Numbered from the stretch's first letter, positions 615 through 19,186 are shown. The stretch: 64,000 nt of DNA from Verrucomicrobiota bacterium (GCA_019246215.1 JAFAQT010000001.1:5225-69224); one strand, 5' to 3'. Notes: generated by a model from the letters alone, not told the origin. Program-made: numbers and translations.

Positions 615-1298
615 ATGGATGGACGAATAGCCGAGTCTAGCCTAGGCACGAAAGAAGCGATCACCGAGAAGCGCTTAACCGGGGTTCCCGCTTTCAAAGA
701 ATGGGCCATCATCTGTGCGTCGATCGAACGCGGTGGGACAAGCTTGATTTTTCGAAAGGGCGGAATTGCTGAAGGTGCAAAGGGGTTCCAATTCAAACAT
801 CGGCGATTCTTTCTATTCCCGACATATTTTCATGAACAAGTCAAGCGGACGCGCCTTAGTGGGGAATACGACATAACACCGCGGAATGACTGCGTGGCGG
901 TTTCCCTCTTCGCGGAGGTTGAGTTTGCCATTTTCTTGCGAGACTTGCGCCTAATTCAGGGTTTGAGCTCGCTTCACGTCTTGCAATCGACCGTCCTGGA
1001 GGAGCGCTTTCATTACGATAAACCAGAAGGTCTGTACGTGGCCTTCCTGCGCGCATTTCATATCTTTCCAGTTTGGGAGTTGCCGTGCCATGCTTCCTAT
1101 GGCGGATGCCGCTCCTGGGTTACTCTGCCTGGCCCGCCCGCTGATCTAAAAAAAGAACCTGTGCTCACAGACGAAGAACAAAACCGTCGACGTTCCTTGT
1201 GCCTCGCTATTTCGGAGACTCCACACTCGAATCCGGTCACATATACAGTAACTGAATTCGCTGGAACGTCGCAGCCACCCGATCCCGAACGCGATTGA
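615..1298 (+). CDS. DUF1802-like conserved hypothetical protein
   Basis: 227-aa ORF. The segment PAFKEWAIICASIERGGTSLIFRKGGIAE...FFLFPTYFHE resembles the DUF1802 family as I recall it. The 3' end overlaps the convergent gene by about 60 nt, so the true end is uncertain. Confidence 0.5.
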   Translation: MDGRIAESSLGTKEAITEKRLTGVPAFKEWAIICASIERGGTSLIFRKGGIAEGAKGFQFKHRRFFLFPTYFHEQVKRTRLSGEYDITPRNDCVAVSLFAEVEFAIFLRDLRLIQGLSSLHVLQSTVLEERFHYDKPEGLYVAFLRAFHIFPVWELPCHASYGGCRSWVTLPGPPADLKKEPVLTDEEQNRRRSLCLAISETPHSNPVTYTVTEFAGTSQPPDPERD

Positions 1299-1841: not shown

Positions 1842-2603
1842 TTAATGGGTGGCTTTCGCGATCAAGTAATTACTCACAACCGACCGGCCTTCCGAGAAGA
1901 TCGTCTGCCCATCGGTCCTAGCGTAGAATGTTGTAGAGGATCCACCATCGAAATTTAATGCGCGGCTGATGTGATGGTCCGGAACCATCGTCGCCTGCCT
2001 CAGAATATCGCCCATCTCCTTCAAAGTAACCGATCGGCAGATACCGAAACCCCATTCTGAGCGATCGCACGAAAAAATAAAGGTGCGTGCCGCGACGCGT
2101 CTGTTGTCGAGCCCGGCCACGGTTTGTCCGGCTTCCACTAGAAATGGCCCGCATTGGATGGCTTCATGAATTCCTTTTGTTCCTGGAAATTGTTCGGTTC
2201 GCGCCAGCAAGGGAAGATGATTTCTCACATAAAATATCCCGGACAAGAGCTTCGCTTTTTGCAGACGGTGAACCACATGATCGTTGCTGATCAGCAGCCC
2301 AATCGCCTCGAAATTCTCGTCAAAATACCCGCCATTGATCCCCGCTAGTCCTCCACCAGCTTCAATAGCGTCTCTCAACGCTCGAGTCCTTCCCTCAGTG
2401 TTCGCGATTACCTCGAGCCTTACGTCAGCTGCGGCAAAATAAACCAGTTTAATTTCAGCTTCAGCGACGCCGTTACTTACACGAAACTCTGAGGCTGCCA
2501 GCTTTCCGTCCAGTACAGGTTGATCGCGTCGGTCAAGCACTATCCAATCGGCGTATAAGCATAATGGGCTGAGAAGAAAGAGCAGAAGAAGCTTTTTCAC
2601 CAT
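1842..2603 (-). CDS. phosphodiester glycosidase family protein (DUF2233/NAGPA-like), secreted
   Basis: 253 aa with signal peptide MVKKLLLLFLLSPLCLYA. GINGGYF and LNFDGGSSTTF motifs are typical of this family. Confidence 0.6.
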   Translation of the reverse strand: MVKKLLLLFLLSPLCLYADWIVLDRRDQPVLDGKLAASEFRVSNGVAEAEIKLVYFAAADVRLEVIANTEGRTRALRDAIEAGGGLAGINGGYFDENFEAIGLLISNDHVVHRLQKAKLLSGIFYVRNHLPLLARTEQFPGTKGIHEAIQCGPFLVEAGQTVAGLDNRRVAARTFIFSCDRSEWGFGICRSVTLKEMGDILRQATMVPDHHISRALNFDGGSSTTFYARTDGQTIFSEGRSVVSNYLIAKATH

Positions 2604-2648
2604 GAAAACCTGGCGTTCTTAACTATGTACGGTGCAACGAATGGCAGG

Positions 2649-3578
2649 TCATTTTACTCCGGTCGCCAAAAGTGTTTGAAAATACGGGCTATTCAGTTCT
2701 CTCGAAACAATCTGTACGTCGTTTTCTCGAAAGCCGGCCTGTTCCAGCAGATGCACAAGTTCGACCTCGGTGAATCCGAGCCAAAGATCCGCGTATAATT
2801 CTCTTGCCTGCTCGAAGCCATGGGCGAGCAGATCCAGGATCACAAGGCGCCCACCCCCACGCAGGATTCTTCTGGCTGCCGCGATTGCCCTTTGCGGGCT
2901 GTTGGCGTGGTGGAGTGCCTGACTGAATATTGCCAGATCAATTGAATCATCCGATATGGGTGGGTCTTCAAGGTCACCGAGACGGTACTCCAAGTTGGTG
3001 ATCCCTTGATCCTTGGCAAGTTGGGACCCGATTTCGACCATGCGCTCGGAAATATCGAGGGCGATCACATTCCGAGCGCTTTTAGAGAGAATTTGGGAGA
3101 GTGTTCCTTCGCCTGCGCCCAAGTCTGCGACATCAATGGACGGGATCATGGTCAGGAAAAGATGTGCCAGAGCTTGCCAGGATCTTCCAGGGCAGTAACT
3201 GCGTCCAAACTTTCCGGCGAGCCTGTTGAAATACTCGCGGGTGCGGTTCTTTCGCTTGGCGATCACATGCTGAAGGCTGGAGCGATCCAAAGCGGCTTGC
3301 GGCATATCCGCGACGGCCAACCGGATGAGATTTCGCAGTTCAGGTTCCTTAATTGGACCGCTCAGGGACCAGCTGTAATAGATATTTTTCCCGGCCCGCC
3401 GATCCTGGACCAGGCGGCTTCGTTTCAGGTGGGCGAGGTGAGTCGAAATGCGTGATTGGCCCATCCCGAGAATCTCCTGGATCTCTGCTACTGACAATTC
3501 TTCGCTCTGAAGAATATGCATCAAACGGACCCGAGTTGGATCGGATAATGTACGTAGAGAATTCAGCATTGACGTCAT
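2649..3578 (-). CDS. sahR: ArsR-family HTH fused to a SAM/SAH-binding methyltransferase fold; SahR-like regulator of the SAM cycle
   Basis: The N-terminus LSDPTRVRLMHILQSEELSVAEIQEILGMGQSRISTHLAHLKRSRLV is an ArsR winged helix. The C-terminus has a class I methyltransferase motif (VADLGAGEGTLS ... VIALDIS). The gene is divergent from metK-ahcY. Confidence 0.65.
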   Translation of the reverse strand: MTSMLNSLRTLSDPTRVRLMHILQSEELSVAEIQEILGMGQSRISTHLAHLKRSRLVQDRRAGKNIYYSWSLSGPIKEPELRNLIRLAVADMPQAALDRSSLQHVIAKRKNRTREYFNRLAGKFGRSYCPGRSWQALAHLFLTMIPSIDVADLGAGEGTLSQILSKSARNVIALDISERMVEIGSQLAKDQGITNLEYRLGDLEDPPISDDSIDLAIFSQALHHANSPQRAIAAARRILRGGGRLVILDLLAHGFEQARELYADLWLGFTEVELVHLLEQAGFRENDVQIVSRELNSPYFQTLLATGVK

Positions 3579-3685
3579 GGAAATACGGTCGATATATCAG
3601 CGTATCATGATTGGTCAATATCCGCACCTGCCTTCCCAGCTCTCGGTCCACGCTGGATTCTAAACTCACTGTCCTCTCCTCATTT

Positions 3686-4864
3686 ATGGCACGCCGTAAC
3701 ATATTTTCCTCTGAATCTGTGGCCGAAGGGCATCCAGATAAAGTCTGCGATACCATTTCAGATCAAATCTTAGATGCTTGTTTAACTCAGGACTCAAAGA
3801 GCCGCGTAGCCTGCGAAACTCTCGTCAAAGGTAATCTGGTTGTGATCGCGGGTGAAATTACCACCAACGCCCGTTTCGATTATCTCGACGAGGTCCGTTC
3901 GGCTATACGTGAAATCGGTTATGTCTATGAGGATTCCCAGTTTCATGCTGATACCTGCGTAATTGTCCAGGCCCTGAGCCGTCAATCGCGCGACATCGCT
4001 CAAGGCGTCGACGCCAAAGCCGCCGAAGGGAAAGAAACGGACGAACAGGGAGCCGGTGATCAAGGGTTGATGTTTGGCTTTGCGGTTCGCGAGACGCCGG
4101 AATTGATGCCAGCGCCCATCCAATTGAGCCATAGACTTGGCCGGGAGTTGACCCGCCTCCGCAAATCCGGCGAACTGCCTTGGCTTCGTCCCGATGCCAA
4201 GACGCAGGTTTCAATCGAGTACGAAGGGTATCGCCCTATCCGAGTCGATACGGTTGTGATCTCCACGCAGCATGCCGCGGACGTAAAACACAGAGAAATT
4301 CGCGAGACATTGATCGAACGAGTGATCAAAGGAGTGATCCCATTGGATTGGATCGATTCTTCTACCCGATATCTCATTAATCCGACAGGCCGGTTTGTGA
4401 TTGGGGGACCGGAAGGCGACTCCGGACTGACCGGGCGCAAAATTATTGTTGATACCTATGGCGGAATGGGTCGTCACGGTGGCGGCGCGTTTTCAGGTAA
4501 GGATCCATCCAAAGTAGACCGTTCCGCCGCTTACATGGGAAGGTATGTCGCGAAAAACGTGGTCGCCGCTGGACTCGCGGACCGTTGCGAAGTGCAATTC
4601 GCCTATGCAATCGGGTATCCGGATCCGGTCAGCATTTCAGTCAATACGTTTGAGACCTCGACAGTGGACGAAGAAAAAATCGAACAAGCCATCCGGGAAG
4701 TTTTCAATTTCAAACCGGCTGCGATCATCCAGCAGCTTGAACTGCTCCGTCCTATTTATAAGAAGACAACCAATTATGGGCACTTTGGCCGCGAAGACGA
4801 TCTGGAAGCTCTCCGCTGGGAACGGACGGACAAGGCCGATGCACTGAAGCAATTCGTCCCCTGA
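3686..4864 (+). CDS. metK: S-adenosylmethionine synthase
   Basis: [22 protein letters not shown] start, plus [10 protein letters not shown] and [16 protein letters not shown] motifs. The ORF-track start at 3611 is an upstream in-frame extension, so I chose the ATG at 3686. Confidence 0.95.
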
Positions 4865-4916
4865 AACCCCACCCATTGACAGTTCCATTCACCTTACCAT
4901 CTCCGATTCAATTTAC

Positions 4917-6236
4917 ATGAGCACTGTGACCATAACCCGATCCGCAGATTACAAAGTCGCTGACCTCGGACTAGCCGAGTTCGGCAGAAAAGAAATTGAA
5001 ATAGCCGAAACGGAGATGCCTGGATTGATGGCGCTGCGTGCGGAGTTTGGGACCGCGAGACCGCTCGCTGGCGCTCGAATAGCAGGCTGCCTGCATATGA
5101 CAATTCAAACGGCGGTATTGATCGAAACGCTGATTGAATTGGGAGCATCGATTCGCTGGTCGAGCTGTAACATCTTCTCGACCCAGGATCATGCTGCTGC
5201 CGCACTTGCTGCGCAGGGCATTCCGGTATTCGCATGGAAGGGCGAGACACTCGAAGAATACGATTGGTGTATTGAACAGACGGTTTTCTGGCCCGATGGT
5301 CAGCCACTTAATATGATCCTGGACGACGGTGGCGATCTGACCGCGATCGTCCACCAAAAATATCCGCATTTGTTAAAGGGGATCCGCGGGCTTTCCGAAG
5401 AGACAACGACTGGTGTTCACCGCCTCTACCAGATGATGGAACGCGGCGAACTTGGCTGCCCCGCCTTTAATGTCAACGATTCTTGCACAAAATCGAAGTT
5501 CGACAACCTGTACGGCTGTCGTGAATCGCTGTTGGACGGCTTGAAGCGGGCGACGGACGTGATGATTGCCGGCAAAGTCGCTGTTGTTTGCGGGTATGGC
5601 GACGTCGGAAAAGGATGCGCGCAATCGCTGAAAGGACAAGGGGCTCGGGTCATCGTGACCGAGATCGATCCAATCTGCGCTCTTCAGGCAGCAATGGAAG
5701 GATATCAGGTCGCGACCCTTGAAGAGGTCGTTCAGGAAGGGGATATCTTCATCACGGCCACTGGATGCCGGGATATCATCCGGCGTGAACATCTCGACGC
5801 GATGAAGAACCAGGCGATCGTGGCGAATATCGGGCACTTCGATCTCGAAATTGACGTTGCGAGCGTGTTCAATGACAAGAACTTAAAACGCATTAAAATA
5901 AAGCCGCAGGTTGACCAGGCGGAGTGGCCGAATGGGAAACGTGTGACCATCCTCGCCGAAGGTCGCCTGATGAACTTGGGTTGCGCTACCGGGCATCCCT
6001 CTTTCGTTATGAGCGCCTCCTTCACCAACCAAGTCATGGCGCAAGTCGAGTTATTTACCCATCAGGGGATCTACGAAAATAAGGTCTATGTATTACCTAA
6101 GAAGCTTGACGAGAAGGTCGCCCGTCTGCACCTCGCCAAACTAGGAGTAAACTTAACTCAATTAACCGATACGCAGGCGAGTTACCTTGGCATTCCCGTT
6201 GAGGGGCCGTATAAACCGGATTTTTATCGATACTAA
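4917..6236 (+). CDS. ahcY: adenosylhomocysteinase
   Basis: 439 aa with [27 protein letters not shown], the NAD site [10 protein letters not shown], and the C-terminal PDFYRY. Confidence 0.95.
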
Positions 6237-6324
6237 TAGATTGAAATGTATTTCGTAGTGAGTCTGGTGCCCACCTGATCGATGCGTGCGAGCGGTTTTC
6301 AAGGGCAGTTCGTCTCTATGCATC

Positions 6325-7719
6325 ATGGAAGATCTCCCCACTCAAATTCGGGCGAAGATGGAAGCGGCGGGACTCAGCTCCGCCGCGGTCGGTGCGTTCC
6401 TGTATCAATATCGTAAGCTCGCCCGGAATGAGGCTGGCTTAATACCGGAGAATTCAATTTCTCCGGTCGGAAACTTGCCTTTCATCGATGACGAATCGGT
6501 CTGGGGCGAGCAGTCGAACCTGGCGACTCAAACGGTTTTGTTAAAGCTAAACGGCGGTCTTGGCACCGGGATGGGTTTGGAAAAAGCCAAGAGCCTGCTG
6601 AGGGTTCGGGATGAATTTACCTTCCTTGATATCATCGCCCGGCAATGTTTGCATCTGCGGTCGGCGGTCGCTCCGCAACTCAGACTGTTGTTTATGAACA
6701 GCTTCAGCACAAGCAGCGATACCGCTGCGGCGCTGGCGAGCTATCCCGGGCTAGGCGATCCCAAACAACTGGAGTTGATGCAGAACAAAGTACCAAAGAT
6801 CGATGTGAAAACACTCGAGCCTGCCGAATGGCCACAGAATCGATCTCTGGAATGGTGCCCGCCGGGGCACGGCGATCTTTATACGGCTCTTTTGGGCTCC
6901 GGTTTGCTCGAACGATTGTTAAATGAAGGCAAAAAATATTTGTTCGTCTCAAATTCCGACAATCTTGGTGCCACCCTGGATCTCCGGTTGTTAGATTTCT
7001 TTGCTAGCTCCGCTGCGCCGTTTCTGATGGAGGTCACTTCTCGTACCGCTGCCGATCGGAAGGGAGGCCATTTGGCCCGTAAAAATGCCGATCAACGTCT
7101 TTTGCTCCGCGAATTTGCGCAATGTCCCGAGAAGGATGTGGCTTCCTTTCAGAACATTGCGCGGCACCGCTATTTCAATACCAACAATCTCTGGATTCGT
7201 TTGGATGCCTTGCACGCCGTCCTGGAATGTAGCGACGGTTTACTGCCCCTACCGCTGATTCGAAACGAGAAGACGATAGATCCGCGAGATAAATCGACGC
7301 CTAAAGTCTATCAGCTCGAGACCGCAATGGGGGCCGCAATCGAATGTTTTGATGACGCAAGAGCGATCGAGGTGCAGCGTAGTCGTTTTGCGCCGGTTAA
7401 GACGACGGCCGATTTGTTGGCTGTCCGCTCCGACGCTTATGAATTGGATTCTGAATTCAAGCTGGTGCTGCGGCCCGAACGGAACGGGGTGCCGCCCGTG
7501 GTGAAATTAAGCGATCACTACAAGTTAGTTGATGAATTTGAACCGCTTATTGCCCGTGGTGTGCCGTCGCTGGCGCGTTGCCACAGCCTCACGGTCGAGG
7601 GCAAGATGGTATTTGAGCCGGGCGTGGAAATAGTAGGGGAGGTCAAATTCGTCGCACCAGGTGAAGATACGAAAACTGTCGCTGCGGGCACTTATCAGAA
7701 CAGGGAGGTGGCTTTGTAA
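6325..7719 (+). CDS. UTP--glucose-1-phosphate uridylyltransferase, eukaryote-type UDPGP family
   Basis: LKLNGGLGTGMGLEKAKSLL, FMNSFSTS..T and NSDNLGA motifs match the UDPGP (UGP2-like) family rather than GalU. I prefer the ATG at 6325 over the GTG at 6286. Confidence 0.75.
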   Translation: MEDLPTQIRAKMEAAGLSSAAVGAFLYQYRKLARNEAGLIPENSISPVGNLPFIDDESVWGEQSNLATQTVLLKLNGGLGTGMGLEKAKSLLRVRDEFTFLDIIARQCLHLRSAVAPQLRLLFMNSFSTSSDTAAALASYPGLGDPKQLELMQNKVPKIDVKTLEPAEWPQNRSLEWCPPGHGDLYTALLGSGLLERLLNEGKKYLFVSNSDNLGATLDLRLLDFFASSAAPFLMEVTSRTAADRKGGHLARKNADQRLLLREFAQCPEKDVASFQNIARHRYFNTNNLWIRLDALHAVLECSDGLLPLPLIRNEKTIDPRDKSTPKVYQLETAMGAAIECFDDARAIEVQRSRFAPVKTTADLLAVRSDAYELDSEFKLVLRPERNGVPPVVKLSDHYKLVDEFEPLIARGVPSLARCHSLTVEGKMVFEPGVEIVGEVKFVAPGEDTKTVAAGTYQNREVAL

Positions 7720-7732
7720 GATTAGTGCGATC

Positions 7733-8548
7733 TTAGAGTCTAACAAAATCCCACAAAAATCGGAACCATAGGTAAAACATTCCGCGCCACGTGTAGCGAA
7801 CTTGTTCCTTATCGACATGTGCCAAGAGCCCGGCGCGCACGTTGTGAGTGATCTGCGCGGTCAAGTCTTGCTGCAACAGTATCTGAATCTGCAGGGGATC
7901 AAGTTTGGGGATTGCGTCTACTGATATGTTGTGGCGCGACAGCAAATGCTGATGCGCCTCGCACAGGCCGACGAACGAAGCAGTGGATCGAACGCGTTGA
8001 ATGTGAGTATGGGGCAGGAATTTTAACGAGTACGAAAACGGATAGTTCCAGGTTGTAAAAACCTGTCCGTCCAATAGACGCGTCACGAGACTTATGTAAT
8101 AAAAGGCGATGTTGCCCTCATCAATCAGGCAAAGAGCGGCTTGGGTTTGATCGCTTGGTCGGTGAAATAACCTCAAAAATTGGCGTTGCGTATCCCAGTC
8201 GCAACCGAGGTCATTGACGAGCTCGAAGCCTTGCTGCTCGATTTCTTCAGTCAGAGAATCGAGATTCGGAAATAGATCTCGACCGGGCGGATTTTTGTGG
8301 GCAAGCTCACGGTCGAGAGGCATTCGTAAGGTCCGGATTTTGGTCAGAATCTCAAGCCAGGGCAAGAAGATCCAGAGGGCTGCTGCTGCAAGACCTACGA
8401 CCCAGTTCCCGGATGGCAAATATCCAAGCAAAAACGAAACCGCAAACAAGCAGAGTACGCAGAGTCTTTGGGCAATCGGGTGATCGAAAGACCGAAATGC
8501 AATGCCCAGGACAGCCACCCCTAATACTAATAGAATAGACGAAAGCAT
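7733..8548 (-). CDS. hypothetical integral membrane protein
   Basis: 271-aa ORF with about three N-terminal hydrophobic helices. It is the last gene of the parB-led minus-strand gene string. No family recognised. Confidence 0.5.
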   Translation of the reverse strand: MLSSILLVLGVAVLGIAFRSFDHPIAQRLCVLCLFAVSFLLGYLPSGNWVVGLAAAALWIFLPWLEILTKIRTLRMPLDRELAHKNPPGRDLFPNLDSLTEEIEQQGFELVNDLGCDWDTQRQFLRLFHRPSDQTQAALCLIDEGNIAFYYISLVTRLLDGQVFTTWNYPFSYSLKFLPHTHIQRVRSTASFVGLCEAHQHLLSRHNISVDAIPKLDPLQIQILLQQDLTAQITHNVRAGLLAHVDKEQVRYTWRGMFYLWFRFLWDFVRL

Positions 8549-8565
8549 CGTAAATACAGGGTCTG

Positions 8566-8820
8566 TTAAGGCAGGATCTTATGTTCACTTAAAAATTCTT
8601 CAAGCTCATCAGGTCCGAAGTCGGGAAGAACCAACTCTCCAAAGAGCAGCGTAGGCGTGGAAGTCTGGCCCGAAACGCGTCTCAGTTCCTTTAACGAATC
8701 AGGATCCCGACGCACATCCACGCGTTGATATTGATAGCCGCCCTTTTCGAGATAATCTTCGGCCATGCGACACCATGGACACCCGGTCTTAACGTAAAGG
8801 ATCATTGACGTTGAGCTCAT
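8566..8820 (-). CDS. glutaredoxin-family small thiol oxidoreductase
   Basis: LYVKTGCPWC active site and TPTLLF motif. The start overlaps the upstream stop (ATGA). Confidence 0.75.
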   Translation of the reverse strand: MSSTSMILYVKTGCPWCRMAEDYLEKGGYQYQRVDVRRDPDSLKELRRVSGQTSTPTLLFGELVLPDFGPDELEEFLSEHKILP

Positions 8821-9860
8821 CGCGTGGTTCTCTCGGCGGCGATGAAGTAAAGGACCAGCTTCCCGATTTTCGCAAGAGAATCGGAGTCCAGTCGATCGAG
8901 GGTGTCATCTGCGGTATTCAAAAACGGGAAGTTCGCGTCCAGGAGCGCAATACTAGGAATACCTGCCTGCGCAAACGGTGTGTGGTCCGCAAGAATGGAA
9001 CGGTTGGCAGCTTCGAGCGTAAACCCTAGAACCAGCGCGGCTTTTTTCAGCGCGCTGACCAGGTTCGGGTCGCTGTCGGGTAGATAGTCCAACGAGGCAC
9101 CTCCGAGGTTTTCCAAAAGGATGGCGGCCCGATAATTGCCGGCCCGATGTTCCACCCGGAGCAGCTGGGCGTAGAAGCGGCTGCCGAAGAGGCCGTCGTT
9201 CAGGGTGAGTTCTCGAAATGGTGCGTGGCCGTCTATAAGAACGAGCTCTATATTTCCGGCCAACTCTGGATCCAGGACCAGAGTTCGGGCAAGCTCTATT
9301 AAAACAGCGGTATTCCCCCCGCCATCACTGGCGCCGGGATCTTGAAACTCCCGAGTTGCAGGGGTATCAAAGTGAGCACCAATCAGGACTCGTTGAGACG
9401 ATGCCGGATAGCACGGAAAGCGCGCGATGACATTACAAAATTCGATTTCCCGCCCATCCGGCGCCTGCTCAGTGAGCCGCTGTTCGCTAGTTTGCCAGCC
9501 GAGACGGGTCAAACGATCGACGAGATGCTGGCGAAGATCTTTGTTCGCATCGCTACCGGATGGTCTGGGACCGAAACCGATGAGCGTTTTCGCTTCGGCG
9601 AAAGCTTGGCGTCCCTCGAAATCGGTCCAGATTCTCTCTCGGCGCGGCGGCAGCGTTCCATTCGAAATAGAAGCATTAGCATTCCTTGAATCAGCCTTAG
9701 ACTTTTGGGAGTCAACACGTTTCGAAGTGTCGCCCGGTTTGCAACTGAGGACTATCAATAACAAGCTCAAAAACCAGACCGCTCCCGTTGACGAACGAAG
9801 TTCAGACTTTTTTTTTGACGCCGGAAGCTTTCCTTGGTCTCCCAATCCCGCACTTCTCAC
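8817..9860 (-). CDS. M28-family metallopeptidase (aminopeptidase / glutaminyl-cyclase-like), secreted
   Basis: VLIGAHFDT and GASDGGGNTAVLIELAR motifs with a downstream D/H metal ligand pattern. An N-terminal membrane/signal segment is present. The start overlaps the parB stop by 4 nt. Confidence 0.65.
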   Translation of the reverse strand: MRSAGLGDQGKLPASKKKSELRSSTGAVWFLSLLLIVLSCKPGDTSKRVDSQKSKADSRNANASISNGTLPPRRERIWTDFEGRQAFAEAKTLIGFGPRPSGSDANKDLRQHLVDRLTRLGWQTSEQRLTEQAPDGREIEFCNVIARFPCYPASSQRVLIGAHFDTPATREFQDPGASDGGGNTAVLIELARTLVLDPELAGNIELVLIDGHAPFRELTLNDGLFGSRFYAQLLRVEHRAGNYRAAILLENLGGASLDYLPDSDPNLVSALKKAALVLGFTLEAANRSILADHTPFAQAGIPSIALLDANFPFLNTADDTLDRLDSDSLAKIGKLVLYFIAAERTTR

Positions 9861-10756
9861 TGAATCGAAACTCCCAACAGTGACATAATACGGTCGAGGT
9901 CGTCATTGCCATAGTACTCTATCTCGATCCGGCCCTTTTTCTCGCCGTGCTGAATTGTGACATGGGTGGCGAGCCGATCGCGCAGGCGATTCTCCAAATC
10001 AAAAACGGCATTATGCATTGTTACGGAGTTGGCCTCGCTTGACCGAGCAGGGACGGGCTTCCCAACTTTGCCGAGTCCTTGGCGGGCTAACTGGGCAGCA
10101 ACGAGCCGTTCTGTCATACGCACGGTGGCGGCTTGCCGGATTGTGAGCTCTGCGGCGACAAGCTGTTGATCCTGGCTTTGCAATGCCAGTATCACCTTGG
10201 CATGACCGACACTCAGACGGCCCTGAGCCAGGTAGGATTGAACTTGAGAATGCAGATCGAGCAAGCGCAATGAATTTGCCACTACCGATCTGCTTTTGCC
10301 AAGGCGATGAGCAATGTCTTCTTGCCGCAATGAAAATTCTTCTGCCAGGCGACGGTAAGCATGGGCTTCTTCGATAGGGTTCAGGTCTTCACGCTGTAGA
10401 TTTTCGATTAGCGACAACTCGAGCACGTCTCGATCTGAAGCCTGTCGCACGATGACCGGAGCCTCTTTTAATCCGAGCTGACCGGCAGCTCTCCAACGTC
10501 GTTCTCCTGCGATCAGTTCGCATTTCCCGTCTACCTTCCGAACAATGAGCGGCTGGATGATTCCGTGTTCGCGGATCGATTCGATAAGCTCCTGCAGTTG
10601 CTCAGAATGAAACGCCTTCCTTGGTTGCAACGGACTCGGCACAATGTCGGAAAGTGAGACTCGTTCTACGCGTTCCCACGGTTCGATTACCGGGGAGGCC
10701 GGTTTATTGGTACGGATCAACGCATCGAGACCTTTGCCGAGAGCAAGCTTAGCCAT
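9857..10756 (-). CDS. parB: chromosome partitioning protein ParB
   Basis: MAKLALGKGLDALI start, QPRK box and the GERRWRAA CTP-binding motif, followed by an HTH and a C-terminal dimerisation region. Confidence 0.9.
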   Translation of the reverse strand: MAKLALGKGLDALIRTNKPASPVIEPWERVERVSLSDIVPSPLQPRKAFHSEQLQELIESIREHGIIQPLIVRKVDGKCELIAGERRWRAAGQLGLKEAPVIVRQASDRDVLELSLIENLQREDLNPIEEAHAYRRLAEEFSLRQEDIAHRLGKSRSVVANSLRLLDLHSQVQSYLAQGRLSVGHAKVILALQSQDQQLVAAELTIRQAATVRMTERLVAAQLARQGLGKVGKPVPARSSEANSVTMHNAVFDLENRLRDRLATHVTIQHGEKKGRIEIEYYGNDDLDRIMSLLGVSIQ

Positions 10757-10847
10757 TGGAAATTTTCAAGTTAACGGAGGGGCCGCGTTAAAGCAATGTT
10801 TCTACCACGATTTGCAAAGTTCCTCCCTCCATGCTTCCGGAGAAACG

Positions 10848-12080
10848 GTGAATCTTTGGCAGGATCCCAAGGCTAGGTTAATTCTGACTGGCAACTTTTT
10901 ACTTGTCGTGGGCAGCGGAATCACCTGGGTTGCCGTGCCATGGTTGCTTATCCATCAGCCAAACGGGGACGCGATCTTTGGGCTATCGAACTCGGCTCTG
11001 ACCCTGTTGATCTTTCTGCTGCTGCCCTTTTTAGGAAAAGCAATTGACCGCCATTCGCGGAAAAAGGTCCTGATTCTCTACTATGCCGTCGGGATTAGTA
11101 CGAACTTGTTCGTGATCGCAATGATCCTTCTCCAGGGACACGTCGCGCCGTGGCATCTGGTGGTGTCCATTAGCATGGGTTCTTTGGGCATCAGCGTCTA
11201 CTACCCTGTTCAATTTGCGTTCAACCAGGAAGTTTTGGCACGTGATCAATATAGCGCGCTCAGCGGCGCAATCGAAGTGCAGTGGCAGGCCGGCGCCATG
11301 ATCGCCGGCGGTTTGGCGTCCTTCCTGATCAGCAGAACGCCACTCACCTGGATACTGCTATTTGATACCGGCACCTTCACGGCGGCTCTCGTTGTTCTTG
11401 CATTTGTGCCTTACCGCCGCAATTCGAGTCTGGACGCGAATGTCGGATCCGCATGGAAATTGATGCTTGAAGGTCTCGGTTACCTGCGTGTCCGCCCCAG
11501 ATTGTCCGCAGTGCTGTTTGGGAGTTATTTACCGTTCCTCGGGATCATGATCGGCGGCTATCTCCTGCCGCTCTTCATCAAAATTACTCTGCACGCAGGA
11601 CCTGAAGTTTATGGGTTCGCCGAAGTATTTTACTCATTGGGCGCTCTACTCGCGGGTCTGATTGTACCCTCTCTGGGCGACAGGATCGGGTGGCTCGCCA
11701 CCTTGCTACTTACCGTGGGATGTTATACCGTTTCCGTCGTTGTTAACCCATTGTGTCCCGGAGTTGTGGTCCTGTTGGGGTCGCTTGTGCTCCAAGGATT
11801 GGGCAACGCGGGATCGCGGGTAGCTCGAAGTACGATGGCGCTCCAGGCCATACCCAATGAATTGATCGGAAGGGTAAACTTATTTTACAGCGCTCTTGAA
11901 CGCCTCTTGAGGGCTATTTTCCTGGCCGTGGTTACTCGACAAGTCGCGACGACCGACCCGAAATCGGGTTACTGGACAATGGCGAGCATTGGTTTAACTG
12001 GTTGGATTACGATCTTTTGTTGCCGTCGATTCAGGCATGAAAAAGTAATTCCTGCGTTCCCCAGCGAAGAAGTCTTATGA
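10848..12080 (+). CDS. MFS transporter
   Basis: About 12 predicted hydrophobic segments and an MFS loop motif, GKAIDRHSRKKV. The ATG at 10644 would overlap parB by more than 100 nt. An in-frame GTG at 10848 is preceded by GGAG (10839..10842), so I prefer it, but the start remains uncertain. Confidence 0.7.
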   Translation: MNLWQDPKARLILTGNFLLVVGSGITWVAVPWLLIHQPNGDAIFGLSNSALTLLIFLLLPFLGKAIDRHSRKKVLILYYAVGISTNLFVIAMILLQGHVAPWHLVVSISMGSLGISVYYPVQFAFNQEVLARDQYSALSGAIEVQWQAGAMIAGGLASFLISRTPLTWILLFDTGTFTAALVVLAFVPYRRNSSLDANVGSAWKLMLEGLGYLRVRPRLSAVLFGSYLPFLGIMIGGYLLPLFIKITLHAGPEVYGFAEVFYSLGALLAGLIVPSLGDRIGWLATLLLTVGCYTVSVVVNPLCPGVVVLLGSLVLQGLGNAGSRVARSTMALQAIPNELIGRVNLFYSALERLLRAIFLAVVTRQVATTDPKSGYWTMASIGLTGWITIFCCRRFRHEKVIPAFPSEEVL

Positions 12081-14217: not shown

Positions 14218-15471
14218 TTAGATTGTCTTGATTGCATGCTCAAAAAGAGTTTCAAATTCTCTAAGGTTCGGACGAATCAGTTTGGCTTGACCGATTTTGT
14301 CAATCACAGCCTCCTGCGTCTTTAGACCGTGTCCGGTAATACACAGGACGATGCTTTCATTTCGAGGGATGCAGCCGCGTTCGATCAGTTTTTGAGCACA
14401 CGCCACGGTGACTCCGCCTGCAGTCTCAGCAAAAATTCCTTCGGTTTCGGCCAGGAGTTTGATTGCGTCTATGATCTCCTCATCTGTGCAATCTTCCGCT
14501 GCGCCGCCAGTTTCTTTCATTGTTCGGATGGCGTAATAACCGTCTGCCGGAGTGCCGATCGACAACGATTTTGCGATCGTGTGAGGTTTGGCAACCGGCT
14601 TAACGATCTCTGTGTTATTTTTGATTGCGGTGGTGACCGGTGAACACCCGACTGCTTGAGCGCCGTAAATGCTAAACTCGCCGGCCTCGACGAGCCCAAG
14701 CTTAGTGAATTCTTGAAATGATTTGTGGATCTTTGTCAACAGAGAGCCGCTGGCCATACAAACTACTGTGTGCCTGGGCAGACGCCATCCGAGTTGTTCG
14801 ATGATCTCGAACCCCATGGTTTTCGAGCCCTCGGCGTAATAAGGCCGAAGGTTTACATTCACGAAGCCCCAGTGATATTTGCCGGCGATTTCGGAACAAA
14901 GGCGGTTAACCTGATCGTAGGCCCCTTGGATGCCAATAACGTTAGTACCGAAAATCAGTGAGCCAAGAATCTTTGTCGGCTCCAGATCCGCCGGTATCAG
15001 CACAAAACTACGAAGCCCCGCGGCGGCGGCATTTGCAGCCACCGAATTCGCCAGGTTGCCGGTGGAGGCGCAGGCAACGGTGTCGATTCGGAGTTCCCTC
15101 GCCCGGCTCAGAGCGACCGAGACGACGCGATCCTTAAATGAAAGCGTAGGGTAATTAACGGTGTCGTTTTTGACGTAAAGCTCTTCGACACCGAGGCGCT
15201 CCGCTAAGCGGCGAGTGCGGATCAAGGGAGTGAATCCGGTGTGGAGACCCACAGTCGGCTCATTTTCAAGCGGGAGGAGTTCCCGATATCGCCACATTGA
15301 TCGTGGGCGTGAAAGGATCTTTTTGCGAGTTAAAGACTTGCCGATCGCGTCGTAGTCGTAGGCGGCTTCCAGGGGGCCGAAATCGAATTCGCAGACGTGA
15401 ACAGGCTCCTTGGCGTAGTGTCGGCCACACTCCCGACATCGAAGATGCGAAAAGAACCGCGGTTTATCCAT
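14218..15471 (-). CDS. threonine-synthase-family PLP enzyme (ThrC homologue with N-terminal Cys-rich ribbon)
   Basis: PTLSFKDR PLP-lysine motif, a CASTGN segment and a GxxxGxS region. The N-terminus carries CRECG...VCEF. 417 aa. It lies directly downstream of a SAM-I riboswitch. Confidence 0.8.
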   Translation of the reverse strand: MDKPRFFSHLRCRECGRHYAKEPVHVCEFDFGPLEAAYDYDAIGKSLTRKKILSRPRSMWRYRELLPLENEPTVGLHTGFTPLIRTRRLAERLGVEELYVKNDTVNYPTLSFKDRVVSVALSRARELRIDTVACASTGNLANSVAANAAAAGLRSFVLIPADLEPTKILGSLIFGTNVIGIQGAYDQVNRLCSEIAGKYHWGFVNVNLRPYYAEGSKTMGFEIIEQLGWRLPRHTVVCMASGSLLTKIHKSFQEFTKLGLVEAGEFSIYGAQAVGCSPVTTAIKNNTEIVKPVAKPHTIAKSLSIGTPADGYYAIRTMKETGGAAEDCTDEEIIDAIKLLAETEGIFAETAGGVTVACAQKLIERGCIPRNESIVLCITGHGLKTQEAVIDKIGQAKLIRPNLREFETLFEHAIKTI

Positions 15472-15827: not shown

Positions 15828-16748
15828 ATGCCCGCAAAGTTTCGCGTTAATTCTCCCGGAGGAGAACCTTTCGAACGAGAAGTTAACAATACCGCCACGA
15901 TCGGGCGGACTCCGGACAATACCATTCCACTATCGGGCAACCATGTTTCCCGCCAGCACGCGATAGTGCGTTGTCACAATGGCTTCCAGTATCAGATCAT
16001 GGATCTTGGCAGCCGGAACGGAACGTTCGTCAATGATCAGCGGGTGGTGATGCCGGTCACCCTCGAACCAGGTGCCAGAGTCAGAATCGCGAATTACGAG
16101 CTCGTGTTCGATCAATCTCCCGACGACGAACCCTCTGGGAACGTCGATGCAACGCTTGCGGCAGGGAGTATGGAAGGGCACCAGGCCGTATTGTCCGTCG
16201 CAATACTTGTCTGTGACATCCGCGGTTTCAGTTCGATGGCCGAAAAACTGGGTGAGCGTGAACTCGCCCAAATCATCGGTAATTGGTTTCGCGACATCGG
16301 GAATGCTGTGCAATCTGCCGGTGGGATTATCGACAAATATATTGGTGACGCCTTGCTGGCTTACTGGCCGGCACGAGATGAGGAGGGAACCGAATGCGCA
16401 GTCTGCTTGGACGTGGCGCTGACCATTCTCCAACTTGCGGCCAATCGAGTTTGGCCGGGAACCGAGACTCCGTTTCGCGTCGGGATTGCAGTTCATTTCG
16501 GCCGCGTGACAAGCAGCAATATTGGCCAGGTCGCAATGAGAGATGCCACGATCATTGGCGACACAGTGAACACGGCTTTCCGGCTCGAGGGTGTCATGAA
16601 GGAATTAGACCAGAACCTGGTCCTCTCGCAGGATGTCGTTACAGTCTTGCCCGCCAGATACGATTTGGTGAAATTTGGAGAGTTCCAGCTGAAAGGCAAA
16701 AGCCAGGCAGTCCGTGTTTACGGGCTGCGGGATCTACGGGGGAATTAG
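15828..16748 (+). CDS. FHA domain fused to a class III adenylate/guanylate cyclase domain
   Basis: N-terminal FHA: TIGRTPDNTIPLSGNHVSRQHAIV...DLGSRNGTFVND. C-terminal cyclase: VLVCDIRGFSSMAEKLG, DKYIGDALLAYW, IGDTVNTAFRLE. Confidence 0.85.
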   Translation: MPAKFRVNSPGGEPFEREVNNTATIGRTPDNTIPLSGNHVSRQHAIVRCHNGFQYQIMDLGSRNGTFVNDQRVVMPVTLEPGARVRIANYELVFDQSPDDEPSGNVDATLAAGSMEGHQAVLSVAILVCDIRGFSSMAEKLGERELAQIIGNWFRDIGNAVQSAGGIIDKYIGDALLAYWPARDEEGTECAVCLDVALTILQLAANRVWPGTETPFRVGIAVHFGRVTSSNIGQVAMRDATIIGDTVNTAFRLEGVMKELDQNLVLSQDVVTVLPARYDLVKFGEFQLKGKSQAVRVYGLRDLRGN

Positions 16749-16924: not shown

Positions 16925-19186
16925 TTAGCCACGCTCTCTTTTGCCCAGGAACCAGTAGGAGCAGACAAATCCGCCGATCATCCACAATAAAAGTGATGCG
17001 CAGGCGACCCAAATCGGTCGAGTCTCAGTGTAGAGGGTTCCTGTTTTGAGTCGTTCTCCGGTTCTTGATTTGGTCCAGTCGCTGATGTTGAAATAAGCGA
17101 TAGGATAGTCCCGGGCGAGTGCTCCGGAAATTTTCTGGTTAATCAAAAAACTAACATCCGCGATGCGTTGAGAGGCAAAGCTAGGCATAACCTGGCTTAA
17201 GGTCAGGACAGGTAATGTCATGTCCTTGGCCGGTACTGTGAAACCTGAAAAGAGGATTTGCGGGATGAGCAGCAGCGGAACCAGCATGACCGCCTGCATT
17301 GGAGACCTGGCGTAAGCGGACGTCGTCAAACCGATCCCCGTTGCGGCGAAGGCCAGGAGAATGAGCCCGATGATCTGCCATAGAAAGGCCCCATGAACAC
17401 TGAACCTGCCGACCGCGATCGTCCCGTAGAGCAGGAGAGATTGGAATGCAGTGAGACCGGCCATCCAGATAAACTTGCTGGTCAAATAGCTCCAGCGGCT
17501 TAGCCCGACCAGCCGCTCACGGCGATAGATCGGCAGCTCTTTGATAATTTCCTGTGCCGAGTTGCTGCACCCGAACCAGAGTGTCGCAATATAGGCAAAA
17601 AACTGATCTAACTGCGGATCGGGTGCTGCCCAGGCCACCAAAGCTCCGATAATAATCGGTTGGGCCACCAGAATAATCAAGTTCTTGGAGTCAGCTCTGA
17701 AAATCGCAAGCTGCCGTTGCAAAAGTATCGGGAGCGAGAACGCCCTCCTTTTCTTTGTCAGTGGCGCAGGCGCATCCTGGTCCGGCTCCCCTGGAACCGT
17801 CGGTTCGAAGGGAGGGAGGATTGCTGATTCCATGGACTGAAGCGCGTCGTACAGCAAGGAGAGGCGGGTAACACCGAATCTTGAACGTGCCTGGTCGGGA
17901 GGACCCTGAAATACGACGCGCCCATCAGAAACAATGGCGATCTGGTCCATCAGGTAGACATTTTCCATCACGTGCGTAGTGCAGATCACAGTGCAGCCCG
18001 TATCAGCCAGGCGGCGTAATAGCTCCATCAGTTTGAATTCCGCCAGAGGATCCAGTCCCGAGGTCGGCTCATCCAGAAACAAAAGAGGCGGACGACTCAA
18101 TAGTTCGACTCCCACACTGACCCGCTTCCGCTGCCCACCGGACAAGCGACCGATCTTCAGGTTTACCCGGTCGGCCAATCCGAGACTGACGATGGTGTGA
18201 TCGACCAGTTTCACAATCTCCTGCCGAGGTGTTCCTGCAGGTAATCGCAGACGAGCAGCAAAGGTGAGCGCTTCGGTGACCGTCAGGTCAGAGTGAACTA
18301 TATCGTCTTGGGGGACGTAACCGAATAACGAGCGAAGCTGGCCGAGGTTTTTGTACAGATCGGTCTGATCGAACCGAACCTTTCCGCTTTCAGCAGGTCG
18401 AAGACCGCTCAAAGCGTCCAGAAGCGTGGTTTTCCCGGCGCCGCTTGGTCCAAGTATCCCGATGAACTGACCAGGTTCCGCCACAAAACCTGCACGGTTC
18501 AAGATCGGACCGTTGTCACCTTGGCGAGTAAGCCCGATAGCTAAAATGCGGCCCACGGAAAGGCGCCGGACGCGAACGAGCCGCCTGCCATCGTAAATAA
18601 AGAAAAATGGTCCCAATTGAATCTGGTCGCCGATCACGAGATCGTGTTCGTCGAAACGGCGACCGTTGACGAAGGATCCTGATTTGCTATGAAGATCGAG
18701 TAATCGATATCCTTTCGGCCCGGATTCGATCATTGCATGGCGTCTCGAGACGACAGGATCGCTTAAGACAACATCGACCTCCTCGCTTCGCCCGAAAATG
18801 AGGTCCGACCCGAGAGGGATGTCTGCTGTCGGTGTTCCTTTATACAAAACAGTACCGATGGGATTGACCAACTCCGCTGCACCTGAAGATTCGTCGGTGC
18901 CGACGCCAAAGGCCAAAGTGACTGGACCGACCTGGATCTGATCCCCTGACTTGAGCGCGGTCCGACCCGAGATACGGTTCCCGTTCACCGCGGTTCCGCG
19001 TTGACTGCCGAGGTCCTCAATAAACCACGCTTCACGTTCGAATAGAATCCGGCAGTGACGCCGCGATACTTCCGGATGCCCCAGAATCAGATCGACTTCC
19101 GCAGCCCGGCCAAGGACCACACTTTCACCGCGCAGCAACTCCGAGCGCGGCGGGAGCCCGGCAAGAATGGAGATCGGCATTTCCAA
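16925..19186 (-). CDS. ABC transporter with two N-terminal FHA domains, one NBD and an ABC-2/ABCG-type permease in a single polypeptide
   Basis: FHA1: VVLGRAAEVDLILGHPEVSRRHCRI...GSQRGTAVNG. FHA2: LIFGRSEEVDVVLSDPVVSRRHAMI...HSKSGSFVNG. Walker A GPSGAGKTT, signature LSGGQRKRV, Walker B LLFLDEPTSGLD, and six C-terminal TM helices. Confidence 0.85.
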   Translation of the reverse strand: MEMPISILAGLPPRSELLRGESVVLGRAAEVDLILGHPEVSRRHCRILFEREAWFIEDLGSQRGTAVNGNRISGRTALKSGDQIQVGPVTLAFGVGTDESSGAAELVNPIGTVLYKGTPTADIPLGSDLIFGRSEEVDVVLSDPVVSRRHAMIESGPKGYRLLDLHSKSGSFVNGRRFDEHDLVIGDQIQLGPFFFIYDGRRLVRVRRLSVGRILAIGLTRQGDNGPILNRAGFVAEPGQFIGILGPSGAGKTTLLDALSGLRPAESGKVRFDQTDLYKNLGQLRSLFGYVPQDDIVHSDLTVTEALTFAARLRLPAGTPRQEIVKLVDHTIVSLGLADRVNLKIGRLSGGQRKRVSVGVELLSRPPLLFLDEPTSGLDPLAEFKLMELLRRLADTGCTVICTTHVMENVYLMDQIAIVSDGRVVFQGPPDQARSRFGVTRLSLLYDALQSMESAILPPFEPTVPGEPDQDAPAPLTKKRRAFSLPILLQRQLAIFRADSKNLIILVAQPIIIGALVAWAAPDPQLDQFFAYIATLWFGCSNSAQEIIKELPIYRRERLVGLSRWSYLTSKFIWMAGLTAFQSLLLYGTIAVGRFSVHGAFLWQIIGLILLAFAATGIGLTTSAYARSPMQAVMLVPLLLIPQILFSGFTVPAKDMTLPVLTLSQVMPSFASQRIADVSFLINQKISGALARDYPIAYFNISDWTKSRTGERLKTGTLYTETRPIWVACASLLLWMIGGFVCSYWFLGKRERG

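Follow-up and report, generated by a model that had tools for sequence, protein, structure and literature searches.

Organization of the regulator-metK-ahcY locus

We analyzed a 64,000-nucleotide stretch of DNA (the window) from a Verrucomicrobiota bacterium (GCA_019246215.1, JAFAQT010000001.1:5225-69224), in which a gene for a putative regulator of the SahR type lies divergently from two genes of the S-adenosylmethionine (SAM) cycle. The regulator gene (2649..3578, minus strand) encodes a protein of 309 amino acids (aa). On the plus strand lie metK, coding for S-adenosylmethionine synthetase (3686..4864; TIGR01034, 561 bits) and proposed as the first target gene, and ahcY, coding for S-adenosylhomocysteine hydrolase (4917..6236; TIGR00936, 645 bits), 52 nt 3' of metK. 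Both matches are at the equivalog level of NCBIfam. The divergent arrangement, with metK starting at 3686 and ahcY at 4917, had been reported in a preliminary description made from the sequence alone, and the coordinates are confirmed here.

The mechanical open reading frame (ORF) of metK opens at a TTG at position 3611; homology is found only from position 3686 (TIGR01034 is aligned from residue 7), where an ATG gives a 392-aa protein. For the regulator, no possible start codon of the ORF precedes that of the 309-aa form, and residues 1-20 align with the family-wide alpha-1 helix; thus, the 290-aa forms present in some databases probably derive from mis-called starts. The region between the regulator and metK (3579..3685) is 107 bp long, and scans found in it no promoter-like site (consensus promoter scan) and no terminators. 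The scan also gave no terminator-like site in the gap between metK and ahcY, and the two genes are probably co-transcribed.

Domain architecture and conservation of the regulator

The combination of an ArsR-type winged helix-turn-helix (wHTH) N-terminus and a class I methyltransferase-fold C-terminus, proposed in the preliminary description, was recovered in the 309-aa ORF by the Pfam and NCBIfam domain searches. HTH_5 (ArsR) matched at aa 13-58 (E 2e-13) and Methyltransf_11 at aa 152-247 (E 1e-21); together, Methyltransf_11, Methyltransf_25, and Methyltransf_31 cover aa ~149-251, including the DLGAGEG motif. The protein can thus be divided into three parts: the wHTH domain covers aa ~4-70, a long linker helix is formed by aa 93-123, and aa ~134-309 make up a minimal class I Rossmann fold of the type binding SAM or S-adenosylhomocysteine (SAH). 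The AlphaFold2 model (mean pLDDT 90.9, pTM 0.63) shows the wHTH joined by the long helix to a minimal seven-stranded Rossmann methyltransferase core without a lid domain.

Conservation was measured over 78 diverse full-length members of the family (28-50% identity). Motif I, DxGxGxG (D152, G154, G156, and G158), is invariant or nearly so, as are the acidic residue D175, D214, H253, and the pair G268-F269. The recognition helix QSR(I/V)SxHL is conserved family-wide; its form GMGQSRISTHL is identical in most of the verrucomicrobial-type relatives compared, with a one-residue change in three. In general, the verrucomicrobial-type subset is far more strongly conserved than the whole family.

C129, the only cysteine of the regulator, is not conserved, and neither the protein sequence nor the family consensus presents a CxC or an alpha-5 metal site, the alpha-3 region being ELSVAEIQEIL. 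The NF033788 match spans only the HTH, and the scores against the NCBIfam enzyme models lie below the cut-offs (ArsM, 58.8 against 263; UbiE/MenG, 54.5 against 158; BioC, 55.1 against 185). Because these enzyme-model scores are far below the cut-offs and the only cysteine is not conserved, a role as metal sensor or dedicated enzyme is unlikely. Searched both by sequence and by fold, the PDB contained no solved structure of the SahR type; the best matches were generic methyltransferases (YcgJ), ArsR proteins (SmtB), and, for the whole chain, Rv2258c.

Relationship to SahR proteins

SahR is a SAH-responsive ArsR-family repressor of SAM-cycle genes, described in Desulfovibrio alaskensis/vulgaris and in alpha-, gamma-, and delta-Proteobacteria, with a core regulon composed of sahR, ahcY, metH, metF, and metK; it co-occurs with ahcY-type SAH recycling (PMC4239095). 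Its operator is a single 20-bp palindrome, and the gamma-proteobacterial motifs of SahR and of the related SamR both contain ATC-N10-GAT (PMC4239095). The same work lists SahR in Sphingomonadales and Rhizobiales, with Novosphingobium aromaticivorans among the Sphingomonadales of its Table S1 (PMC4239095). In Ensifer aridi, SahR has been deleted and its autoregulation shown (PMC8877191). Response to SAH and autoregulation are on record for Desulfovibrio and Ensifer (PMC4239095; PMC8877191).

Reference boxes were read straight from annotated replicons found by tblastn. Leptospira interrogans (sahR-ahcY-...-metH) carries upstream the perfect palindrome ATATCAAGATATCTTGATAT, of the ATC-N10-GAT type; the corresponding sites are ATATAAAGATATCTTTATAT in Sphingomonas parapaucimobilis (sahR-metF-metH), ACATAAACATATCTTTATGT in Sinorhizobium meliloti (sahR-metF), and ATATAAcaaaagccTTATAT in Novosphingobium sp. 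ES2-1 (sahR-metF-metH). All four reference loci present single 20-bp boxes. Over its full length, the regulator is 31% identical to the protein of Sinorhizobium meliloti, 31% to that of Novosphingobium, and 32% to that of Leptospira, and the reference SahR-like proteins are only 27-28% identical to one another. The SahR-like identity first proposed is thus consistent with full-length matches of 31-32% that head sahR-metF(-metH) or sahR-ahcY-metH clusters elsewhere.

The Leptospira locus lies on chromosome II of L. interrogans (filed as plasmid), with the palindrome region at 4920..4945 and the genes at 4947..10849 of the extracted locus (L082). The cluster, sahR-ahcY-(4Fe-4S protein)-metH, stands behind the perfect 20-bp palindrome, which suggests that the SahR circuit exists in Spirochaetes too.

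Conserved synteny among relatives

The nearest proteins, with 80-94% identity, come from metagenome-assembled genomes (MAGs) of Verrucomicrobia/Chthoniobacterales. Scanning one genome per GTDB species, we obtained 80 related loci with regulators 59-92% identical to that of the window. Among these loci, 77 are labelled Verrucomicrobiota or Chthoniobacterales, two only "bacterium", and one, a short contig, Pyrinomonadaceae. The non-proteobacterial background suspected from the sequence is therefore assigned: the organism belongs to Chthoniobacterales, Verrucomicrobiota. The divergent arrangement of regulator and metK is kept in 79/80 loci, the exception (L026) having no upstream DNA, and ahcY follows metK in every related locus whose contig extends that far.

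A profile search found further family members, including some labelled Puniceicoccaceae, Bryobacterales, and Verrucomicrobiae. One of them, from a contig labelled Bryobacterales (L084), has a regulator 55% identical to that of the window, divergent from ahcY across just 68 bp. Verrucomicrobial-type regulators were thus observed on two Acidobacteriota-binned contigs, this one (protein P0321) and the 2.4-kb contig labelled Pyrinomonadaceae (L037, DATHHW010000150.1); either these are mis-binned short contigs or the spread beyond Verrucomicrobiota is real.

A conserved dyad-symmetric block in the intergenic region

The preliminary description had pointed to two perfect 8-bp palindromes and two TATCA repeats in 3579..3685. 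All are present: GATATATC at 3591..3598, ATCATGAT at 3604..3611, and TATCA at 3595 and 3603. At least two perfect 8-bp palindromes occur in 4.4% of the mononucleotide shuffles of the intergenic region, so the two palindromes by themselves are weak evidence, being marginally unusual (the window average is 0.46 perfect 8-bp palindromes per 107 bp). Their significance comes from the conservation, among relatives, of the block that contains them.

We compared 79 regulator-metK intergenic regions, that of the window included, representing 71 distinct cores. These regions cannot be aligned anywhere except in a 32-nt block, CGATATATCAGCGTATCATGATTGGTCAATAT (3590..3621 in the window), which is near-invariant in the 79 regions and is proposed as an operator common to the divergent promoters of sahR and metK; the flanks have diverged, and the information content across the 71 distinct cores drops sharply at 3589 and 3622. 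The consensus of the block is CGATATATC-nnnn-TATCATGATTGGTCAATAT. Its distance from the regulator ATG is 11-12 nt in 75/79 regions, and that from metK ranges from 38 to 150 nt, being ~64 nt in the window. A motif is thus conserved upstream of SAM-cycle genes in the relatives. Scanning with a position weight matrix of the block gave one match in the 64-kb window and one per related locus, with no second site.

On the position matrix, the best symmetry center falls between 3607 and 3608 (score 13.7 against 9.8 for the runner-up), within ATCATGAT (3604..3611), which is invariant or nearly so in 71/71 distinct cores and forms the center of a 28-bp pseudo-palindrome at 3594..3621. The symmetry reaches 14 bp on each side, with ATAT-N6-ATCA to the left of the center and TGAT-N6-ATAT to the right. 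The other palindrome, GATATATC, is not conserved: relatives carry GATACATC, AATATATC, or AATGCATC at this place, the conserved part being ATATC. Judging from this comparison, GATATATC appears to be an incidental palindrome around a conserved ATATC element. The idea of two 8-bp palindromes acting as separate operators was rejected in favor of one 28-bp dyad centered on ATCATGAT.

Within the dyad, Box 1 (ATATCAGCGTATCATGATTG, 3594..3613) is a SahR-box-like 20-mer with the core ATC (3596-98), N10, GAT (3609-11), and is identical to the Leptospira palindrome at 14/20 positions, a score reached by 35/20000 shuffles (p about 0.002). The best match to the Leptospira box falls at the same offset in 75/79 relatives, with scores of 13-16/20. 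Box 2 (GTATCATGATTGGTCAATAT, 3602..3621), offset by 8 bp, mirrors Box 1 about the dyad center and is degenerate (ATC-N10-AAT; 13/20 to ATATCAAGATATCTTGATAT). The block may therefore be read as two SahR-type boxes, 8 bp apart and overlapping by 12 bp. The preliminary description had supposed that the operator may differ from the published motif, and it does: the single 20-bp palindrome is replaced by a 28-bp double box, in which the ATC-N10-GAT core is kept.

In two more distant loci the block is retained in register, beside ahcY in one and beside metK in the other. The 68-bp region of the Bryobacterales-labelled locus contains ATATCTACCAATCTAGATAT-GT-TGATATAAT, which aligns by hand with the block of the window without a shift and is 24/32 identical to it; both boxes are clearer there (15/20 and 16/20), the counterpart of Box 2, ATATCTACCAATCTAGATAT, being a clear ATATC-N10-GATAT, and the equivalent outer element overlaps a TATAAT. 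In a second locus (L085), the block ATATTGACGTATCAGGATTGGATGATATATCC lies ~20 nt from metK and is 25/32 identical to that of the window (hand alignment). In this locus, ~1.4 kb of duplicated sequence (2600..4000) parts the regulator from the operator and metK; it holds copies of a PDDEXK_3-family gene and a repeat of the regulator 5' end and resembles a repeat or mobile insertion.

The block also covers a possible core promoter of sahR, read from the sequence on the minus strand (3618..3591): TTGACC (3618..3613), a 16-nt spacer, and TATATC (3596..3591). Such a promoter would end 12 nt from the ATG and leave a leader of a few nt. The promoter scan passes over it, its -10 element being without the final T.

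Palindromic sites upstream of SAM-cycle genes in metagenomes

The block was idealized to the perfect palindrome ATATCNNNNTATCATGATANNNNGATAT, i.e., ATATC-N4-TATCATGATA-N4-GATAT, and scanned against metagenomes; the sahR-metK regions of Chthoniobacterales cannot themselves match this pattern. The genes neighboring the matches were identified by tblastn with MetK, AhcY, the regulator, MetF, and MetH. Among 110 matching loci, 44 (40 distinct sites) have a correctly oriented SAM-cycle gene directly downstream of the palindrome: metH in 21 loci, metF in 12, metK(-ahcY) in five, while in six the palindrome lies between divergent sahR and ahcY. Taken with sahR itself, these four kinds of target make up the core SahR regulon known from Proteobacteria (PMC4239095). 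The distance from palindrome to start codon is about 0 to 97 nt, as estimated from the tblastn alignments.

The symmetrized consensus of the metagenome sites reads AcATATCAacATATCA to the left of the axis and TGATATgtTGATATgT to the right, and the perfect 28-bp palindrome form is ATATCAACATATCATGATATGTTGATAT. By our own count, each 20-mer sub-box of the symmetrized consensus is 18/20 identical to the Leptospira palindrome. The positions left free in the pattern show the consensus AA, as in the reference SahR-type box.

The regulators encoded beside the metagenome sites share 49-52% identity with that of the window. Four of them are full-length; the recognition helix GMGQSRISTHL is identical in three (L099, L167, and L172) and differs by one residue in the fourth (L180). 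The former three share 68-77% identity with P0340 and with P0343, the latter encoded in a MAG labelled Verrucomicrobiae. The metH and metF sites lie only on metagenomic contigs, and the 49-52% identical regulators stand beside such sites on other contigs.

The other 66 matches comprise ~15 (ATCATGAT)n tandem tracts, ~25 other recurrent palindromes, and sites at contig ends; the naive ORF calls adjoining these palindromes without a SAM-cycle neighbor are largely spurious-looking. The tandem tracts, (ATCATGAT / ATCACGAT)n, come from the coral metagenomes Ga0126336/Ga0126342 (L096, L102, L103, L117, L123, L128, L131, L134, L166, and L170) and matched the pattern while being unrelated to SAM-cycle genes. 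Two longer palindromes, TGATATCATTATATCATGATATAATGATATCA and TTGATATCTTGATATCATGATATCAAGATATCAA, recur on many unrelated contigs without a SAM-cycle neighbor (L098, L105, L116, L121, L157, L177, L178, L183, L191, L192, and L195; and L112, L113, L164, L174, and L194, respectively), and may serve as operators in other systems or belong to mobile elements.

RNA elements and metK leaders

Rfam searches found no riboswitch in the metK leader of the window or in those of 15 relatives, including ones with 450-bp metK-ahcY gaps, and the window leader is unstructured (z -0.44). Elsewhere in the window, a SAM-I riboswitch (RF00162; 15537..15653, minus strand, 83.9 bits) lies directly upstream of a gene for a 417-aa pyridoxal phosphate-dependent enzyme of the threonine synthase family (14218..15471, minus strand; TIGR00260, 275 bits). 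The control of a thrC-like gene by SAM suggests a role in homocysteine/methionine synthesis rather than in threonine synthesis. It also suggests a division of labor, in which RNA senses SAM for biosynthesis and protein senses SAH for the cycle.

In several relatives (L036, L048, L053, L057, L073, L078, and similar loci), arrays of 8-nt inverted repeats lie between the operator and metK, with two to three copies of GCGTTRAA followed at a distance by two to three copies of TTYAACGC, and can be folded into a long RNA hairpin (z -2.5 to -4.4). The arrays are absent from the window, and they gave neither a match in Rfam nor a consensus structure in RNAalifold. They could be a leader structure, a repetitive extragenic palindromic (REP)-like element, or a site array of another factor.

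Other neighboring genes of the window include those for a DUF1802 protein (615..1298, plus strand), an FHA-domain adenylate/guanylate cyclase (15828..16748, plus strand), and an FHA-domain ABC transporter (16925..19186, minus strand), and a link to the SAM cycle is not evident for them.

Proposed mechanism and alternative explanations

From the gene identities, the conserved synteny, the dyad-symmetric block, its likeness to sites preceding SahR-like genes elsewhere, and the recurrence of the idealized double box beside SAM-cycle genes in metagenomes, all established here, we infer binding, repression, the SAH effector, and the stoichiometry as follows. We consider it likely that the regulator is a SahR-family repressor, released by SAH, that controls metK-ahcY as well as its own gene. 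The wHTH would bind the 32-nt block at 3590..3621; since this block covers the promoter region of sahR and stands ~64 nt before metK, its occupation would repress the regulator gene and the metK-ahcY operon alike. In line with the behavior described for the SahR family, it would occlude the sahR promoter and block metK-ahcY transcription (PMC4239095; PMC8877191). The minimal methyltransferase-fold C-terminal domain, with its cofactor-binding motifs kept, is most likely the sensor: accumulated SAH would bind it and the protein would leave the DNA, so that more AhcY would clear SAH and more MetK would restore SAM. In its geometry, the block has two pairs of elements with N10 spacing, shifted by 8 bp from each other, which suggests that two dimers occupy each operator.

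A more specific form of this model, to which we give slightly less than even credence, concerns the architecture of the operator. The verrucomicrobial-type operator would be a 28-bp palindrome, ATATCAACATATCA and TGATATGTTGATAT on either side of the axis, built from two canonical SahR boxes that overlap at an offset of 8 bp and occupied by two dimers on different faces of the helix and working as a cooperative, tetramer-like switch. In Chthoniobacterales, it would have been cut to one asymmetric copy fused with the divergent sahR/metK promoters, leaving the de novo methionine genes to the SAM-I riboswitch.

The preliminary description had proposed that the same SAH-responsive circuit operates here. 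With this, the architecture, the metK-ahcY context, and the operator core agree; the SAH effector and the DNA binding are parts of the proposal that we infer from the family. Some observations weigh against the repressor model. The identity of ~31% to proteobacterial SahR is the distance at which the SamR of Xanthomonadales was set apart as possibly SAM-responsive, and orthology to SahR rests on annotated relatives and on genomic context. The window block is a degenerate palindrome, matching 19/24 well-defined consensus positions, whose right half might just as well consist of promoter elements. Each genome fragment (the 64-kb window and the 80 loci) carries a single site, and tblastn found no metF or metH there; the wider regulon was seen only for distant metagenomic relatives (49-52% identical). 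Finally, one regulator of the family, on a contig labelled Puniceicoccaceae (L083), has no SAM-cycle neighbor.

Three other explanations were considered. If regulator and operator are as described, the effector might be SAM, as in a SamR-like protein, or SAM and SAH together, rather than SAH alone. Enzymes with this type of methyltransferase fold bind SAM as well as SAH, the ~31% identity to proteobacterial SahR equals the distance between SahR and SamR, the effector of SamR being left open (PMC4239095), and metK, a SamR target, heads the controlled operon. However, ahcY is always co-controlled with metK, and related operators lie upstream of metH and metF, as in a SAM-cycle regulon of the SahR type, the SamR regulons being without other SAM-cycle genes. 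Moreover, the SAM-I riboswitch of the window would already provide SAM sensing for a biosynthetic gene, which might make a second SAM sensor less necessary. On balance, we regard a SAM effector as unlikely.

It is still less probable, and by a good way, that the block represents overlapping divergent core promoters, or the site of another factor, and that the ArsR-methyltransferase protein is not its binder. In such a case, the most invariant part, ATCATGAT, would be a promoter spacer, which is normally unconserved, and the dyad symmetry of the block would be unexplained, as would the perfect palindromes found 0-97 nt upstream of four types of SAM-cycle genes and between sahR and ahcY, and the likeness of the block to palindromes that precede SahR-like genes in other phyla. 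These points outweigh the fixed distance of 11-12 nt from the regulator start, the TTGACC-16-TATATC legible on the minus strand, and the presence, in one sub-clade, of a TATAAA(T) box in place of the right end of the block. The least probable explanation, which we hold to be very improbable, is that the protein is primarily an active methyltransferase (UbiE/ArsM-like) or a metal- or arsenic-sensing ArsR whose position beside metK-ahcY is incidental. The names given to its homologs ("UbiE methylase" in JGI and "metalloregulator ArsR/SmtB" in NCBI) and the intact cofactor-binding motifs would agree with it, but the scores far below the ArsM, UbiE, and BioC cut-offs, the modelled minimal seven-stranded core without a substrate lid domain, the unconserved sole cysteine C129 with no CxC or alpha-5 metal site, and the synteny kept in 79/80 loci all speak against it.

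Comparison with known systems

The control of the SAM cycle by SahR has been described for Proteobacteria (PMC4239095), and the literature collection that we searched contained no paper linking SahR with Verrucomicrobia, Planctomycetes, Leptospira, or Chthoniobacter. The window locus and its 80 relatives show the circuit fixed in an abundant soil lineage, Chthoniobacterales. The analysis provides a testable 28-bp double-box model, along with 44 sites from metagenomes that can help annotate this regulon in uncultured bacteria, and it corrects the database names "metalloregulator" and "UbiE methylase" carried by thousands of homologs. The understanding of SAH sensing itself is unchanged, and a specialist would not be surprised.

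Among the solved structures, Rv2258c of Mycobacterium tuberculosis (PDB 5f8c/5f8e) is the best whole-chain match to the model (Foldseek E 9e-16). It has a wHTH-like N-terminus followed by a class I methyltransferase and binds SAH; however, the whole-chain TM-score of 0.45 and root-mean-square deviation of 23 A indicate a different domain arrangement, and Rv2258c is regarded as an enzyme rather than a regulator of the SAM cycle. The ArsR/SmtB metalloregulators (SmtB, CzrA, and ArsR) share the wHTH fold (SmtB, 1r22, at E 9e-9), and the total length of the dyad operator is similar to that of their 12-2-12 site. Unlike them, the regulator is without metal-binding Cys/His motifs and would sense through the appended methyltransferase-fold domain. 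The SAH riboswitch (Rfam SAH_riboswitch), located upstream of ahcY/metH in beta- and gamma-Proteobacteria, offers a parallel in logic, as SAH build-up turns on ahcY and SAM-cycle genes, but it is an RNA element and not a protein, and none was found in the metK leader here or in the relatives.

The comparison with SamR of Xanthomonadales is closer. SamR combines an ArsR domain with a methyltransferase fold, is ~30% identical to SahR, and has a longer, 24-bp palindrome with ATC-N10-GAT; its regulon includes metK, and it has been set apart as possibly SAM-responsive (PMC4239095). Compared by description, the SamR regulon differs in covering genes of de novo methionine synthesis (metB, metE, metX, and hom), without other SAM-cycle genes (PMC4239095), whereas here ahcY is always in the operon, and in relatives the site also precedes metH and metF.

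SahR shares with the system described here the two-domain architecture, the ATC-N10-GAT palindromic operator, and its own gene as target; the putative targets are metK and ahcY here, with metH and metF added in relatives, and SAH recycling of the ahcY type again goes together with the regulator. The operator overlaps the putative promoter, as expected of a repressor. The differences lie in the phylum, Verrucomicrobiota, in the sequence, which is only 31-32% identical to those compared from alpha-Proteobacteria and Leptospira, and in the operator, which is 28 bp long and made of two overlapping boxes, compared with one 20-bp palindrome, its right half being degenerate in this lineage. One operator is seen in this lineage, in the region shared by sahR and metK-ahcY. 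The system is therefore not of a new kind; it is a known circuit whose range is extended to a new phylum.

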